Notes: a model not told the origin generated them from the sequence alone. Positions 27,623-31,787 are shown, counted from the first letter of the stretch. The stretch is DNA of 64,000 bases from an uncultured Candidatus Rokubacteria bacterium (GCA_963762145.1 CAVXJS010000014.1:288001-352000); one strand, 5' to 3'. Translations and numbers: made by a program.

Positions 27623-28612
27623 ATGACGGGGGGCGCCATGACGGGCTTTCGATGGTCGCACCTGTTCTTCCTTCTCTCCACCTGGGTGGTGGTGTCGATC
27701 GTGGCCCTGCTGGTGGTCGGGCTGGCGTGGACGCTCCGGCTCAAGCCGCAGGCGCTCCGGGACGCGCGCGCCCAGCGCCAGGACATCGTCCGCGTGCTCG
27801 CGGGGCTGGCGGATGCCCAGGTGCGCGACAAGCTCGACGCCCTCGGCCCGCTCGCCGTCCACTTCGCGCAGGGCTGGGCCGCGCGCGAGCCGCGCGCGCT
27901 GCAGCGCGAGATCGACACGATCCGGGCGATGCTGCAGATGCCGACTCTCTTCGTGGTGTCGCCCGACGGCCGGCCGCTCGCGTTCAGTCCGCTCACCGGG
28001 CCGGACGGCACATCCAACCTCGATCTGCGCTACGCGGACCGGCCCCTCCTGCAGGAGGCCATTCGCCTCCAGGGGCCCGCGGTGTCCGGCATCATCTTCG
28101 GCCGGGCCTCGCGCGATTTCATCGTGGGCGCCGCGGTGCCGATCAAGGTGAACGAGCAGATCGTCGCCTATCTGATCGGCAGCATCCGGCTGCAGGGATC
28201 CATCGAGGCCATCGAGCAGGCCGGGCCCGGGGGCTGGCTGATCATGATCGACGCGGGGAAGCAGGCGATCTACCTGGACCGGAAGACGCGCCAGCTCACG
28301 CAGGAGGACTGGAAGAACCATCCATTCGTCGCCGAGCTGAGCCGCCGCCAGTCCGACGGCCTCGTCGCGCTGGGCGAGGACGACGAATGGCTGCTCACCA
28401 AGGCGGTGATGCCCACCCTCAAGGTGGATCTGGTCTTCGCCGCCTCGGTACGCCAGATTCTGGAGAGCCAGCGGGCGGTGCTGCTGACCCTGGTGGCCGC
28501 CCTCCTCGTCTCGGTGGCCATGAGCCTGGCCGTGAGCACGGTGACCGCCCTCCGCTTCGTACGGGAGCAGGAGGCGGCCGCGCTCAAGATGCGCGTGGGA
28601 ACGGGGGGTTAG
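27623..28612 (+). CDS. Two-TM Cache-domain membrane protein without a cytoplasmic output domain
   Basis: TM, then YADRPLLQEAI..GPAVSGIIFGRAS..IVGAAVPI (dCache-like), TM, then a ~20-aa tail. Confidence 0.7.
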   Translation: MTGGAMTGFRWSHLFFLLSTWVVVSIVALLVVGLAWTLRLKPQALRDARAQRQDIVRVLAGLADAQVRDKLDALGPLAVHFAQGWAAREPRALQREIDTIRAMLQMPTLFVVSPDGRPLAFSPLTGPDGTSNLDLRYADRPLLQEAIRLQGPAVSGIIFGRASRDFIVGAAVPIKVNEQIVAYLIGSIRLQGSIEAIEQAGPGGWLIMIDAGKQAIYLDRKTRQLTQEDWKNHPFVAELSRRQSDGLVALGEDDEWLLTKAVMPTLKVDLVFAASVRQILESQRAVLLTLVAALLVSVAMSLAVSTVTALRFVREQEAAALKMRVGTGG

Positions 28613-28628
28613 CGCGCCTCCGGGGGAA

Positions 28629-28661
28629 GCCGTTTCACACCCGGCCGGCGGCGGTGTCTCA
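28629..28661 (+). promoter_or_regulatory. Putative ECF-dependent (autoregulatory) promoter, copy 1
   Basis: GCCGTTTCACACC-N9-GCGGTGTCTCA; both blocks and the spacing are identical to 30182-30214. Confidence 0.7.
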
Positions 28662-28672
28662 TGGGCAGAGTG

Positions 28673-29200
28673 ATGGCAGAGGACGCGTTCGAGGCGGTGG
28701 TGGGGGCCCACCACGCGGAGATCCGGCGCTACCTGCTGCGGATCACGGCGCGCGGAAGCGACGCCGACGATCTCTCGCAGGAGACCTTTCTCCGCGCGTT
28801 CCGGGCGTACCGCGCCCTGGCGCCCGGCTCGAACGTGCGCGCGTGGCTCTTCACGATCGCCACGAACCTCGGGCGCAATCACTTCCGGGCCCAGGGGCGC
28901 CGGCGCCGGGCCTATGCGGCGGCGGCCCTCGAGATGAGGCCCGACGCGCCGGACCGGGCCGACGGCCAGGCGCTGGCCGACGAGGCGCGCGGGCGGCTGG
29001 AGCGGGCGATCGGGGAGCTGCCCGGCAAGCAGCGGCTGGCGTTCATCATGAGGAAAATGCACGAGCTCGAATACGCGGAGATCGGGGCGAGCCTGTCCTG
29101 CTCGGAGGAGAGCGCCCGCGCCCACGTCTTCCAGGCCCTCCGCAAGGTGCGGCGCAGCCTCGACGGTCATCTTCCGCTCGGAATGGAGTCCCGGTCATGA
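28673..29200 (+). CDS. ECF RNA polymerase sigma factor
   Basis: Region 2 DADDLSQETFLRAF...AWLFTIATN; region 4 LPGKQRLAF..LEYAEIG..ARAHVFQA; start may be 28661, 28670 or 28673. Confidence 0.93.
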   Translation: MAEDAFEAVVGAHHAEIRRYLLRITARGSDADDLSQETFLRAFRAYRALAPGSNVRAWLFTIATNLGRNHFRAQGRRRRAYAAAALEMRPDAPDRADGQALADEARGRLERAIGELPGKQRLAFIMRKMHELEYAEIGASLSCSEESARAHVFQALRKVRRSLDGHLPLGMESRS

Positions 29201-30162
29201 GCCCTCAGCACCCCCTGTGCCGCGCCATCGAGCCGGACCTCCTGAGCGTCGCTGCGGGTGAGGCGGGATCCACCGCGGCGGGACGCGTGGAAGCGCACGT
29301 GGCCGGTTGCGGGCTCTGCCGGGACGAGCTCGCGCACTACCGGGCGCTCGAAGGCATGATGGGCACGCTGCGACGCGCCCCGCTCGAGGACGACGACGCG
29401 ACGCTCGCGCGCGCCCAGCTCGCCTCGCGCCTCTCGGACCTGCGCTCGCGCATGGTCGGCTTCGGGATCTTTCCGTCGCCGCTGGGGCGCATCCTCATCG
29501 GTCGCTCCGAGCAGGGCGTGGCCCTGGTACAGTACCTGCCCGCGGACGGATCGCTGTCCGCGCACGTGCGGCGGCTCCTGGGCGAGGACGCGGTCGAGGA
29601 CCGCGCGGCGACCGAGGCGCTGCGGGCGGAGCTGGTGGAGTATCTCGAGGGCCGGCGCGCGCGGCTCGACTGGCCGCTCGACCTGCGCCGGATGCGGAGC
29701 GAGTTCCAGCGGCGCGTGCTCGAGGCGACGGCCGCGCTGCCCTACGGTGCGGTCACCTCGTACGCGGGCATCGCCGCCCGCATCGGGGCACCCTCCGCGG
29801 TGCGCCCGGTCGCGCAGGCGCTGCGCTGGAACCCGCTGCCGATCGTCATCCCGTGCCACCGGGTGATTGGCGGCTCCGGCGCGCTCACCGGCTACGCGGG
29901 CCGGCGCGTGGAGCTCAAGCAGCGTCTGCTCGCGGTCGAGGGCGTGAAGACGGTCGCGACGCGGAACGACTTCAAGGTGGACCGCGAGGCCATGTACACG
30001 ATGGTCACCGGGGACAGCGAGTACTGCGTGCCCACCTGCGGCTCGCTCCTCTCCCGGCCGTTGTCCGCGCTCACGCTGTTCGGCACGCGGGAGGGCGCCG
30101 AGGCCGCCGGCTTCGAGCCCTGCACGAGCTGCCGGCCCGATCTGCACCCCCTCCCCGCCTAG
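29197..30162 (+). CDS. Fusion protein: ZAS (zf-HC2) anti-sigma + O6-alkylguanine-DNA alkyltransferase + Ada-type Zn-binding domain
   Basis: HVAGCGLC (HxxxCxxC); NPLPIVIPCHRV; YCVPTC...FGTREGAEAAGFEPCTSCRP; ATGA overlap with the sigma stop. Confidence 0.88.
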   Translation: MSPQHPLCRAIEPDLLSVAAGEAGSTAAGRVEAHVAGCGLCRDELAHYRALEGMMGTLRRAPLEDDDATLARAQLASRLSDLRSRMVGFGIFPSPLGRILIGRSEQGVALVQYLPADGSLSAHVRRLLGEDAVEDRAATEALRAELVEYLEGRRARLDWPLDLRRMRSEFQRRVLEATAALPYGAVTSYAGIAARIGAPSAVRPVAQALRWNPLPIVIPCHRVIGGSGALTGYAGRRVELKQRLLAVEGVKTVATRNDFKVDREAMYTMVTGDSEYCVPTCGSLLSRPLSALTLFGTREGAEAAGFEPCTSCRPDLHPLPA

Positions 30163-30181
30163 CCCGCCCGCGACGTCCTCC

Positions 30182-30214
30182 GCCGTTTCACACCGTCTCG
30201 CTCGCGGTGTCTCA
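30182..30214 (+). promoter_or_regulatory. Putative ECF-dependent promoter, copy 2
   Basis: GCCGTTTCACACC-gtctcgctc-GCGGTGTCTCA, followed by an AAGGAGG RBS and ATG at 30237. Confidence 0.7.
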
Positions 30215-30236
30215 ACGTGCGAAGGAGGACAGAACG

Positions 30237-30641
30237 ATGAGCTCGGAGACGGAGATCACGATCATGATTGTGCTGGTTCCCTTCCTCGCGGTCTGGGCGT
30301 TGCTCGCGCTGAGCCGCCGCGTCCAGCGGCGCCGCGAGGAGCGGGTGGTCCGGCAGATCGCCCTGACCGACGCCATCCACGGCGAGCTGGGCGCCGTCGC
30401 GGCCCCGGACGTGACGCGGAGCTTCGCCGGCGAGTGGACGGTCTCGATGCGCCTGCCGCTCCATCACGAGGGCATGGTGGGCGCGATCACGCGCCTCACG
30501 CAGGATCTCTTCCGCCGCCTCGACCGGCAGGATCCGCCGCGGCTGCGCCTGGTCCTGATCCCGCAGACGGTTCGGCCGTGGCGGCGGGACCGGGTGGTGG
30601 GCGTTTCCCGCGAGGCGGGGCGCCTCGACCGCGCGGCCTGA
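30237..30641 (+). CDS. Hypothetical membrane-anchored protein
   Basis: Strong RBS; N-terminal TM IMIVLVPFLAVWALLAL; small alpha/beta C-domain. Confidence 0.7.
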   Translation: MSSETEITIMIVLVPFLAVWALLALSRRVQRRREERVVRQIALTDAIHGELGAVAAPDVTRSFAGEWTVSMRLPLHHEGMVGAITRLTQDLFRRLDRQDPPRLRLVLIPQTVRPWRRDRVVGVSREAGRLDRAA

Positions 30642-30662
30642 GCGCAGAAGAGGAGAGCGGGC

Positions 30663-30878
30663 ATGGACATCAATACCTACGCCCTCGAGAAGATCGCCAA
30701 CGGGCGGCTCACCGAGCTCCGCGCCGCCGGCGCGCGGGTGGCCCTGATCGAATCGGCCCGGATCGGCCCCCGCGGGGTGGGGGTCGCGGTCGGATCCGCC
30801 CTCATCCGGCTCGGACACTGGCTGGCGCCCGCGGAGGAGGCGGCGGCGCCGAATGCAGGAGTGCGAGTCGCCCGCTGA
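30663..30878 (+). CDS. Small hypothetical protein
   Basis: GAGGAG RBS; VGSALIRLGHWLA amphipathic motif. Confidence 0.65.
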   Translation: MDINTYALEKIANGRLTELRAAGARVALIESARIGPRGVGVAVGSALIRLGHWLAPAEEAAAPNAGVRVAR

Positions 30879-30917
30879 AATAGTATGCTTGCCCCCAGGC
30901 CGGGGAGGGCCGGGGCC

Positions 30918-31787
30918 ATGGCGGGAACATTCGATCGGCGGGAGCAGGATCTGGGCAACATCGTGCTGCTGGAGCACGTCAACGTGCGGGTGCCGGATCA
31001 GCACGCGGCCACCCTGTTCTACATCGCCGGGCTCGGGCTGACGCGCGATCCCTACCTGATGGTGAGCGTGGAGAACATGTGGGCCAACGCGGGGCAGACC
31101 CAGTTCCACCTGCCGACCGGCGCGCCGAACGTGCTCCAGGGGCACGTGGAGATCGTGGTGCCGGATCTCGACGCGCTGATGCGGCGGCTGGCCGCAGTGC
31201 GCGAGCCGCTCGCGGGCACCCGGTTCGCCTACGAGATGCGCGACAAGCACGTGGCGGTGACGTGTCCGTGGGGCAACCAGTTCCGCTGCGTAGGCCCCGC
31301 CGCCGAGTACGGTGACATGACGCTCGGCATCTCACGGGTCGAGGTCCCGGTGGCGCGCGGCGCCGCCGCGGGCATCGTGTCCTTCTACAAGACCGCGCTC
31401 GGGGCCACCGCCTCCGTGAGCCAGGACGACGTCGGCCAGGCCGCGCGTATCAGCGTCGGCAACCGGCAGGAGATGGTGTTCCGGGAGACCGACGCCCCGA
31501 TCGCGCCCTACGACGGCCATCATGTCGCGGTCTACATCTCGGACTTCTCGGGCCCGCACGCGTGGCTGGTGGAGCACGGGCTCCTGTCCGAGGAGAGCAA
31601 TCCGTACCAGTATCGCTTCCAGGTCATTACCGACCCGGAGAGCGGCAAGAAGCTCTCGGAGATCGAGCACGAGGTGCGCTGCGTGACCCATCCCATGTAC
31701 ATGCGCCCGCTGATCAACCGCAACGCGGCCCAGCGTCAGGCCACCTACGTACGGGGGCGGGACGCTTTCGTCCCCGGGCTGCTCTAG
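30918..31787 (+). CDS. Two-domain VOC/glyoxalase-like protein
   Basis: LEHVNVRVPD...FY..GLG, QFHLP, CPWGNQF, HHVAVY. Confidence 0.7.
   Translation: MAGTFDRREQDLGNIVLLEHVNVRVPDQHAATLFYIAGLGLTRDPYLMVSVENMWANAGQTQFHLPTGAPNVLQGHVEIVVPDLDALMRRLAAVREPLAGTRFAYEMRDKHVAVTCPWGNQFRCVGPAAEYGDMTLGISRVEVPVARGAAAGIVSFYKTALGATASVSQDDVGQAARISVGNRQEMVFRETDAPIAPYDGHHVAVYISDFSGPHAWLVEHGLLSEESNPYQYRFQVITDPESGKKLSEIEHEVRCVTHPMYMRPLINRNAAQRQATYVRGRDAFVPGLL

Follow-up and report, generated by a model that had tools for sequence, protein, structure and literature searches.

A candidate alkylation-sensing ECF sigma/anti-sigma pair whose putative anti-sigma factor carries an alkyltransferase and an Ada-type zinc domain

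The adaptive response to alkylation is the textbook case of a repair protein that has been turned into a transcription activator. Among the anti-sigma factors that pair with sigma factors of the extracytoplasmic function (ECF) type, the zinc-associated anti-sigma (ZAS) protein RsrA is reported, in the sections of the study used here, to bind zinc through Cys11, His37, Cys41 and Cys44; Cys11 is needed for oxidation-induced release, and an HHCC variant stays bound (PMC4960319). A 2022 review, which cites the 2021 re-classification of ECF sigma factors, names '6-O-methylguanine DNA methyltransferases (ECF122)' as conserved neighbours and, in the same part of its text and with a Cellulomonas example, places ECF122 among the groups 'without cognate anti-sigma factors', for which the mechanism is given as unknown (PMC8999054). 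The main text of the classification paper does not mention this methyltransferase link (PMC7826278). Here, we analyse a stretch of 64,000 nt with 71% G+C from an uncultured Candidatus Rokubacteria soil bacterium (the window; positions are counted from its start), whose closest protein relatives carry the source names Rokuibacteriota or Methylomirabilota. It contains an ECF sigma gene coupled to the gene of a 321-aa protein, hereafter the fusion, in which a putative anti-sigma domain, an O6-alkylguanine alkyltransferase and an Ada-type zinc domain follow one another in a single chain. The span that an earlier note on this DNA had given to the pair, ending at 30878, does hold the sigma and fusion genes; it also takes in a further conserved gene (30237-30641) with a promoter of its own.

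We interpret the locus as a cytoplasmic ECF sigma/anti-sigma pair with a soluble three-part anti-sigma factor, in which alkylation would release the sigma factor onto promoters of the form TTTCAC-N15-G(T/G)GTC. We assign this reading a probability of roughly 0.55. The link to alkylation is drawn because the acceptor cysteines are invariant, Ogt genes lie in the predicted regulon and the domain order is almost exclusively linked to ECF sigma genes. The elements of the locus are the following.

28633..28658, plus strand: promoter P1, TTTCAC-N15-GTGTC, predicted ECF promoter through which the sigma/fusion operon regulates itself
28661..29200, plus strand: ECF sigma gene, an open reading frame (ORF) of 179 aa; the likely start at ATG 28673 gives 175 aa
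29197..30162, plus strand: fusion gene, 321 aa, encoding the putative anti-sigma domain, the O6-alkylguanine alkyltransferase and the Ada-type zinc domain
29197..29466, plus strand: within the fusion, aa 1-90, predicted ZAS-type class I anti-sigma N-domain with C8, H34, C38 and C41
29464..29946, plus strand: within the fusion, aa 90-250, N- and C-domains of the alkyltransferase (MGMT/Ogt), active site P219-C220-H221-R222
29974..30141, plus strand: within the fusion, aa 260-315, Ada-type Cys4 zinc domain with C277, C281, C309 and C312
30186..30211, plus strand: promoter P2, a second copy of the P1 motif, 24 nt past the fusion stop
30237..30641, plus strand: gene of a small protein (134 aa) with a single hydrophobic helix at its N-terminus; starts at +54 from P2, GC3 0.95

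The two main genes are joined by the sequence ATGA, in which the TGA stop of the sigma gene overlaps the ATG of the fusion gene at 29197; this overlap had been seen before and is borne out by the two reading frames. The sigma factor matches Sigma70_r2 (60.5 bits), Sigma70_r4_2 (48.3 bits) and TIGR02937 sigma70-ECF (90.3 bits versus a cut-off of 42.9). As it consists of regions sigma-2 and sigma-4 only, it belongs to the ECF (group IV) sigma-70 family, and its best solved relatives are ECF sigma factors as well (8z6g_B at 2.3e-27, RpoE in 1or7 at 4.6e-23). Translation probably starts at the second ATG, 28673, since all of 28 orthologues share M5. The -10 element of P1 ends ~14 nt before this conserved ATG, and the mRNA would therefore be nearly leaderless. 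Neither a sigma-70-type promoter nor an intrinsic terminator was found in 28400-31000.

Gene coupling was counted in 80 species-level fusion loci. A sigma gene lies directly upstream in 79 of them, the 80th having only 79 bases of upstream DNA, and the 4-nt overlap between sigma stop and fusion start recurs in 74 of the 79. Coupling by gene overlap is typical of sigma/anti-sigma pairs. Among the close homologues (the fusion protein plus 120 matches, n = 121), 113 carry all three motifs of the fusion; five fall short at the N-terminus, and the C-terminal pattern is missing from three. Out of 251 genomes of the phylum, 168 contain the anti-sigma N-domain, as do 71 of the 104 high-quality ones; the former tally includes the unpublished genomes G224, G225 and G096, without which it reads 165/248. 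The domain was not found in two sampled families of the phylum (0/20 and 0/6). The sigma/fusion pair is near-universal in the lineage and constitutes a conserved module.

Residue conservation within the fusion was judged on 28 orthologues of 50-87% identity. The motif HVAGCGLC, which the earlier note had recognized as a ZAS motif, supplies H34, C38 and C41; together with C8 these residues are invariant and form a CHCC ligand set at RsrA spacing. An AlphaFold2 model of the full-length fusion, built on the orthologue alignment (mean pLDDT 86.8), places four helices at the N-terminus (residues 6-19, 25-37, 39-59 and 68-85; pLDDT mostly 84-91), and the N-domain modelled alone yields the same four helices. 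Fold searches were run against 48,161 representative solved chains. With the full model, residues 9-79 matched RslA (Z 6.4), RsiW (5.9), MucA (5.9) and RskA (5.4). The N-domain alone retrieved RslA at rank 1 (Z 6.3), MucA at rank 2 (Z 6.2) and RsiW at rank 4 (Z 5.9), with the further anti-sigma factors RskA, PupR and ChrR at ranks 11, 24 and 35.

Two observations weigh against this assignment. Anti-sigma Z values of 5-6.4 are modest, and according to a caution given by the tool they can arise from a helical arrangement that is common. Moreover, zf-HC2 reaches only 14.9 bits (residues 8-42), under its Pfam cut-off of 22.2; the family is better recognized among relatives, as 18 of the 28 orthologues reach E <= 0.01 with zf-HC2 (best 2.1e-6). 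A profile comparison with solved anti-sigma factors was not significant (RsrA E 0.64, RsiW 0.37, DdvA 0.35). Taken together, sequence, predicted fold and the coupling of the genes lend good support to the putative anti-sigma function of the N-domain. The earlier proposal that an anti-sigma domain is the output of the fusion thus gains from the CHCC ligands, the predicted four-helix fold and the coupling of the genes, and loses by the sub-threshold zf-HC2 match.

In the same chain, both repair-type families lie above their cut-offs. DNA_binding_1 scores 97.1 bits (cut-off 27, residues 169-250), Methyltransf_1N 23.8 bits (cut-off 21, residues 90-163) and TIGR00589 93.5 bits (cut-off 46.4). The alkyltransferase site IPCHRV is intact, as read earlier, with C220 as the acceptor cysteine; P219, C220, H221 and R222 are invariant in the orthologues, and PCHR is present in 121 of the 121 close homologues. 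Y189, R203, N212 and E248, which we take to be the equivalents of catalytic and DNA-binding residues of human AGT, are invariant too. The domain matches Ogt of M. tuberculosis (4bhb_A, Z 17.3) and Ada-C of E. coli (1sfe_A, Z 15.9) in its fold. As part of our best explanation we propose that it is an active suicide enzyme.

The C-terminal domain matches Ada_Zn_binding with 31.9 bits (cut-off 23, residues 260-315). Its cysteines, YCVPTC...PCTSC, stand as C277-x3-C281-x27-C309-x2-C312, confirming the C-x3-C-x27-C-x2-C segment noticed before, and all four are invariant together with an RPDLHP tail. At E <= 0.01, Ada_Zn_binding is matched by 26 of the 28 orthologues and DNA_binding_1 by all 28. By fold it matches methylated N-Ada bound to DNA (1u8b_A, Z 7.1, root mean square deviation (rmsd) 1.9 Å over 54 residues) and 1eyf_A (Z 5.2); by profile, the domain is related to 1adn at E 0.0016. 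The Pfam scan of the fusion returned no AraC/HTH_18 domain, in agreement with the earlier reading that the AraC helix-turn-helix is missing and that the zinc domain sits at the opposite end. Because the NCBIfam Ada equivalog NF011964 scores 107.7 bits, far under its cut-off of 345, the fusion is not an Ada orthologue.

To define the promoters that the sigma factor probably reads, we turned to the DNA upstream of its gene. In 74 of 76 orthologous loci, whose upstream DNA differs otherwise, the sequence TTTCAC-N15-G[TG]GT[CT] stands at fixed spacing before the sigma gene; the remaining two carry variants with one mismatch. A position weight matrix (PWM) built from the sigma-upstream sites was scanned over both strands of the 6.26-Mb genome and gave only 7 matches at or above 14 bits. 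P1 is the best of them (40.2 bits, exact pattern at G000:C14:316633-316658), and P2 reaches 29.9 bits (exact pattern at G000:C14:318186-318211); these are the motif sites of the window, before the sigma gene and before the 134-aa gene only. Others precede the gene of a 115-aa ABM-like protein, an MFS transporter gene, a DUF1706/DinB-like gene followed by Ogt, and a DinB_2 gene. The weakest match (C11:753004, 14.3 bits) has no convincing gene behind it and was treated as noise. In this genome the Ogt gene that follows the DUF1706-like gene (L002, G000:C11:629430-632675, at 1229-1812) appears split over two frames, an N-domain frame to 1477 and a PCHR-domain frame at 1285-1812, through a frameshift or an assembly error. 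In ten genomes with Ogt after a DinB-like gene, L002 included, the PCHR frame is open over 198-386 aa.

The same matrix, applied to the 80 fusion loci, gave 154 matches at or above 18 bits, all on the gene (plus) strand: 75 precede the sigma gene, and 79 are found downstream of the fusion gene. Among the downstream matches, 59 precede a homologue of the 134-aa protein, and 18 of the remaining 20 come no further than ~100 nt from the fusion stop. A 134-aa homologue is found downstream of the fusion in 68 of the 80 loci; the protein has no Pfam match, and the ESM Atlas gives only clusters of hypothetical proteins from the same phylum. In L040, L042, L044, L050, L057, L058, L064 and L085, the second promoter drives a different gene, whose product begins MAKRILVP..., and the 134-aa homologue stands further downstream. 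The promoter lies ~10-100 nt past the fusion stop in these loci, except in L050, where it is further downstream.

Across 21 related genomes the exact pattern occurs 87 times in 19 of them, with 3-7 motif sites per genome, and the reversed pattern does not occur. Sites of identical sequence were merged into 84 unique ones, which makes the regulon counts slightly low, and a first gene could be assigned behind 80 of the 84. These first genes encode DinB/DUF1706-like proteins (22 sites), the sigma factor (17), the 134-aa protein (13), DUF2652 proteins (10), SRPBCC proteins (5), Ogt (4) and singletons (9). Ogt follows 10 of the 22 DinB-like genes, and 3 of the other 12 have less than 600 nt of downstream DNA. 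A stand-alone Ogt gene is thus found behind the motif in 13 of the 19 motif-bearing genomes, usually after a DinB/DUF1706 gene. With stand-alone Ogt and DinB-type genes, the predicted regulon fits an adaptive response to alkylation in which a sigma factor and its inhibitor have control.

The domain order of the fusion was followed into the wider family by a profile scan with one genome per species, comprising 80 alkyltransferase loci. An ECF sigma gene lies directly upstream of 39 of the 41 alkyltransferases with a C-terminal Ada zinc domain; upstream DNA is lacking for one of the two exceptions. By comparison, a sigma gene stands upstream in 1 of the 21 loci of the canonical order, zinc domain first (a ZAS-alkyltransferase without Ada module), and directly upstream in 5 of the 18 loci with neither pattern. 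As judged from the record titles, the 41 loci belong to Actinomycetota, Chloroflexota, Dormibacterota, Eremiobacterota, Acidobacteriota and Binataceae; they span at least six phyla and include the cultured actinomycetes Actinoallomurus, Nonomuraea, Actinomadura and Spirillospora. The triple fusion with a ZAS domain also occurs in 'Bacterium HR23', and ZAS-alkyltransferases without a zinc module adjoin sigma genes in genomes of Longimicrobiales and Thermomicrobiales. In a search of representative proteins, the same three classes turn up in metagenomes.

There are five alkyltransferase domains in the genome under study, and four Ada zinc domains. A paralogous operon on contig C13 (L004, G000:C13:92570-95809, at 648-2621) combines a sigma factor, an alkyltransferase with Ada zinc domain and an oxygenase, as listed here in positions of that locus.

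648-1184: ECF sigma gene
1177-1905: alkyltransferase with C-terminal Ada zinc domain and no ZAS motif
1899-2621: PF09859 'Oxygenase-NA' (265.6 bits)

The alkyltransferase of this second pair has a short N-extension without the HxxxCxxC motif, and its oxygenase is annotated for damaged DNA. The promoter differs from P1 and is conserved, consisting of TTCCACCC, about 16 nt and CGTATA. Related loci have the sigma gene upstream in 18 of 18 cases and the oxygenase gene downstream in 17 of 18. Relatives come from the cultured actinomycetes Actinoallomurus (a complete genome among them) and Nonomuraea as well as from one Eremiobacterota genome, and an ECF sigma gene lies directly upstream in 10 of 10 cases. 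At a further locus (L007, G000:C21:454184-457375, minus strand, 237-1719), an Ada zinc ORF at 1153-1719 overlaps an AraC/AlkA-like ORF at 237-1430 in another frame; a frameshift or a faulty assembly of an Ada/AlkA gene may underlie this.

From these data we infer sigma binding, an alkylation trigger and release as the working parts of the system. At rest, the N-domain would hold the sigma factor. Alkylation stress would irreversibly alkylate the fusion, most likely at C220 and/or at a zinc-bound thiolate (C277 or the ZAS cysteines), upon which the fusion would change its shape or be degraded and the sigma factor would be freed. The latter would read promoters of the TTTCAC-N15-G(T/G)GTC type and drive its own operon, in a positive feedback by which used-up sensor would be renewed as well. 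In addition, it would drive the neighbouring gene of the small membrane protein of 134 aa as well as a defence set of DinB/DUF1706-type genes with stand-alone Ogt, DUF2652, an SRPBCC protein and an MFS transporter.

We consider it rather unlikely that the N-domain alone does the sensing. In that case its CHCC site would respond to oxidants or soft electrophiles like RsrA, by disulfide formation or S-alkylation, the alkyltransferase and the Ada zinc domain would be cargo or serve fine-tuning, and Ogt would be an incidental regulon member. Several findings that would suit such a thiol switch also weigh against the mechanism proposed above. The spacing of the invariant C8, H34, C38 and C41 is that of Cys11, His37, Cys41 and Cys44 in RsrA, and motifs of the CHCC type can themselves sense thiol oxidation, according to the portion of that study considered here (PMC4960319). 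At six positions beside the zinc ligands where E. coli N-Ada (1adn) has Arg, Lys or His, the fusion carries V, G, L, E, T and S, and the Cys-to-Cys core of the 28 orthologues has a mean net charge of 0.0 (range -4 to +2), compared with +4.5 (range +2 to +8) in 14 relatives without a ZAS domain. The basic surface by the zinc site of N-Ada serves binding of the DNA backbone. Since these six basic residues are lost and the core is charge-neutral, methylphosphotriester repair on DNA is doubtful. The zinc domain of the fusion is a true Ada-type module, yet it probably does not bind the DNA backbone in the way of its E. coli counterpart, and its loss of charge raises the question whether free methylating agents rather than DNA lesions are sensed. 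The earlier idea of an adaptive response wired through sigma/anti-sigma logic is thereby weakened on the side of the zinc module, and it is strengthened by the Ogt and DinB-type genes behind the motif. A thiol switch would further suit the DinB_2/MDMPI_N-type regulon members, whose families are annotated as thiol-dependent enzymes. It leaves unexplained why PCHR and the four Ada cysteines are invariant across orthologues of 50-87% identity, why relatives without HxxxCxxC remain linked to ECF sigma genes (10/10 directly upstream; 39/41 in the wider family) and why Ogt genes recur in the regulon.

Quite improbable in our judgement is a tethering at sites of damage, by which the alkyltransferase domain would bind lesions in the way of alkyltransferase-like proteins, and DNA binding would alter the hold on the sigma factor or bring sigma factor or RNA polymerase near lesions. 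It would account for P0125, a full-length metagenomic relative of 50% identity that reads IPSHRV, with Ser in place of the acceptor Cys, and keeps the ZAS and Ada cysteines; transfer may thus not be essential everywhere, which is again a point against our proposal. The fold search also lists 2kim_A (Z 12.7), a member of the alkyltransferase family to which no transfer activity is assigned, and the alkyltransferase-like protein 3gva matches by profile at 2.3e-12. Against tethering stand the acceptor C220, invariant in 28/28 orthologues, and the PCHR of all 121 close homologues, as well as the fact that the Cys-to-Ser case is a single metagenomic sequence. No likelier is a fusion without any anti-sigma function, a co-transcribed repair enzyme under sigma control whose N-domain would be an extension for structure or oligomerisation, with regulation of the sigma factor taking place elsewhere: the listing of ECF122 among groups 'without cognate anti-sigma factors', in the review's section on these groups (PMC8999054), the zf-HC2 score under the cut-off and the modest structural Z values would suit it, and against it stand the full invariant CHCC set, the zf-HC2 matches of 18/28 orthologues, anti-sigma domains at ranks 1, 2 and 4 among 48,161 chains, and the 4-nt overlap in 74/79 loci.

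Beyond these alternatives, some features of the genome and of the family speak against an alkylation-released sigma factor. Neither the motif sites of this genome nor the 80 assigned sites had a gene of AlkA or AlkB type behind them, and most regulon members are of detoxification type or of unknown function (DinB, DUF2652, SRPBCC, MFS) rather than DNA repair proteins. The contig of the window also encodes a regulator of canonical type, with Ada-Zn (105.9 bits), HTH_18/AraC, AlkA_N and HhH-GPD domains (L006, G000:C14:633796-636990, minus strand, 64-1866), and a classical adaptive response may already be present. Finally, a ZAS-alkyltransferase from KSB1 has no adjacent sigma gene. With these points counted, our best reading remains that an anti-sigma factor governs a response to alkylation or to electrophiles, the known kinds being ECF/ZAS signalling and the Ada-type adaptive response.

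A more far-reaching version is tentative, with the odds somewhat against it. Here, suicide alkyl transfer would serve as an irreversible, stoichiometric anti-sigma switch that frees one sigma factor per alkyl group, counts damage and resupplies itself. It would amount to a second, AraC-independent adaptive response, spread over at least six phyla, with ZAS and ZAS-less versions coexisting in one genome under promoters of their own. If alkylation does act through the fusion, the same chemistry would be wired via a different regulatory principle, the release of a sequestered sigma factor; an ECF group listed with 'mechanism unknown' in the part of the review cited above would receive a function, and a new class of cytoplasmic anti-sigma sensor domain would be added. 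Candidate signals are DNA damage, free methylating agents and general thiol stress. Our analysis yields a defined promoter motif, a small predicted regulon and the candidate residues C8, C38, C41, C220 and C277, and cultured actinomycetes carry the ZAS-less version.

The surroundings of the operon were not counted in the system, as the flanking genes are kept only among close relatives and none stands directly behind a motif copy. Upstream lie genes for a 329-aa membrane protein, a zinc alcohol dehydrogenase, an M28 peptidase and an enolase-family protein, and downstream are glyoxalase-like, Sel1 and RidA genes. The 329-aa membrane protein (27623-28612) has no Pfam match; its gene stops 20 nt before P1 and is kept in 15 of the 80 loci, the closest relatives only.

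Among the systems in print, ECF122 is the nearest by gene neighbourhood. Like the window pair, it combines an ECF sigma factor with a conserved 6-O-methylguanine DNA methyltransferase neighbour, and the loci of Actinoallomurus, Nonomuraea, Actinomadura and Spirillospora show the arrangement described for it in the review's short account. Unlike our locus, that account mentions no Ada zinc domain, ZAS domain, promoter or regulon, and the window sigma factor shares only 31-37% identity with the Actinoallomurus sigma factors. We found no characterised case of an ECF sigma factor, anti-sigma factor and alkyltransferase acting together in the full-text literature, a coverage outside which most subscription journals and all supplements lie. 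The earlier note likewise knew of no characterised example, and this still stands; the methyltransferase neighbours of ECF122 are already in print, as far as the text cited goes. Novelty is therefore reduced, not removed, since the link is published only as a remark on gene neighbourhood in that text.

The second pair on contig C13 resembles the window pair in having an alkyltransferase with C-terminal Ada zinc domain directly after an ECF sigma gene. It differs by the missing ZAS motif, by its promoter and by the oxygenase in the operon, and the zinc modules of its group keep the basic residues (mean charge +4.5). E. coli Ada, like the fusion, is a single polypeptide that unites a suicide alkyltransferase with a Cys4 zinc domain of Ada type, and each of the two appears to induce its own gene. 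Unlike Ada, with its order of zinc domain, helix-turn-helix and alkyltransferase, the fusion has the order inverted and no AraC/HTH_18 domain; its predicted output is an anti-sigma domain acting on a separate sigma factor, and its zinc module is without the six basic residues beside the ligands. With the anti-sigma factors of the pairs RsrA-SigR, RslA-SigL, RsiW-SigW and ChrR-SigE, the fusion shares a soluble N-terminal four-helix domain, predicted in its case, and its CHCC ligands stand at the spacing given for RsrA in the portion of the literature cited here. As in ZAS/ECF pairs, its gene is coupled to an ECF sigma gene with a promoter of its own. What sets the fusion apart from RsrA, RslA, RsiW and ChrR is its C-terminal part, which consists of a DNA repair enzyme and an Ada zinc module.

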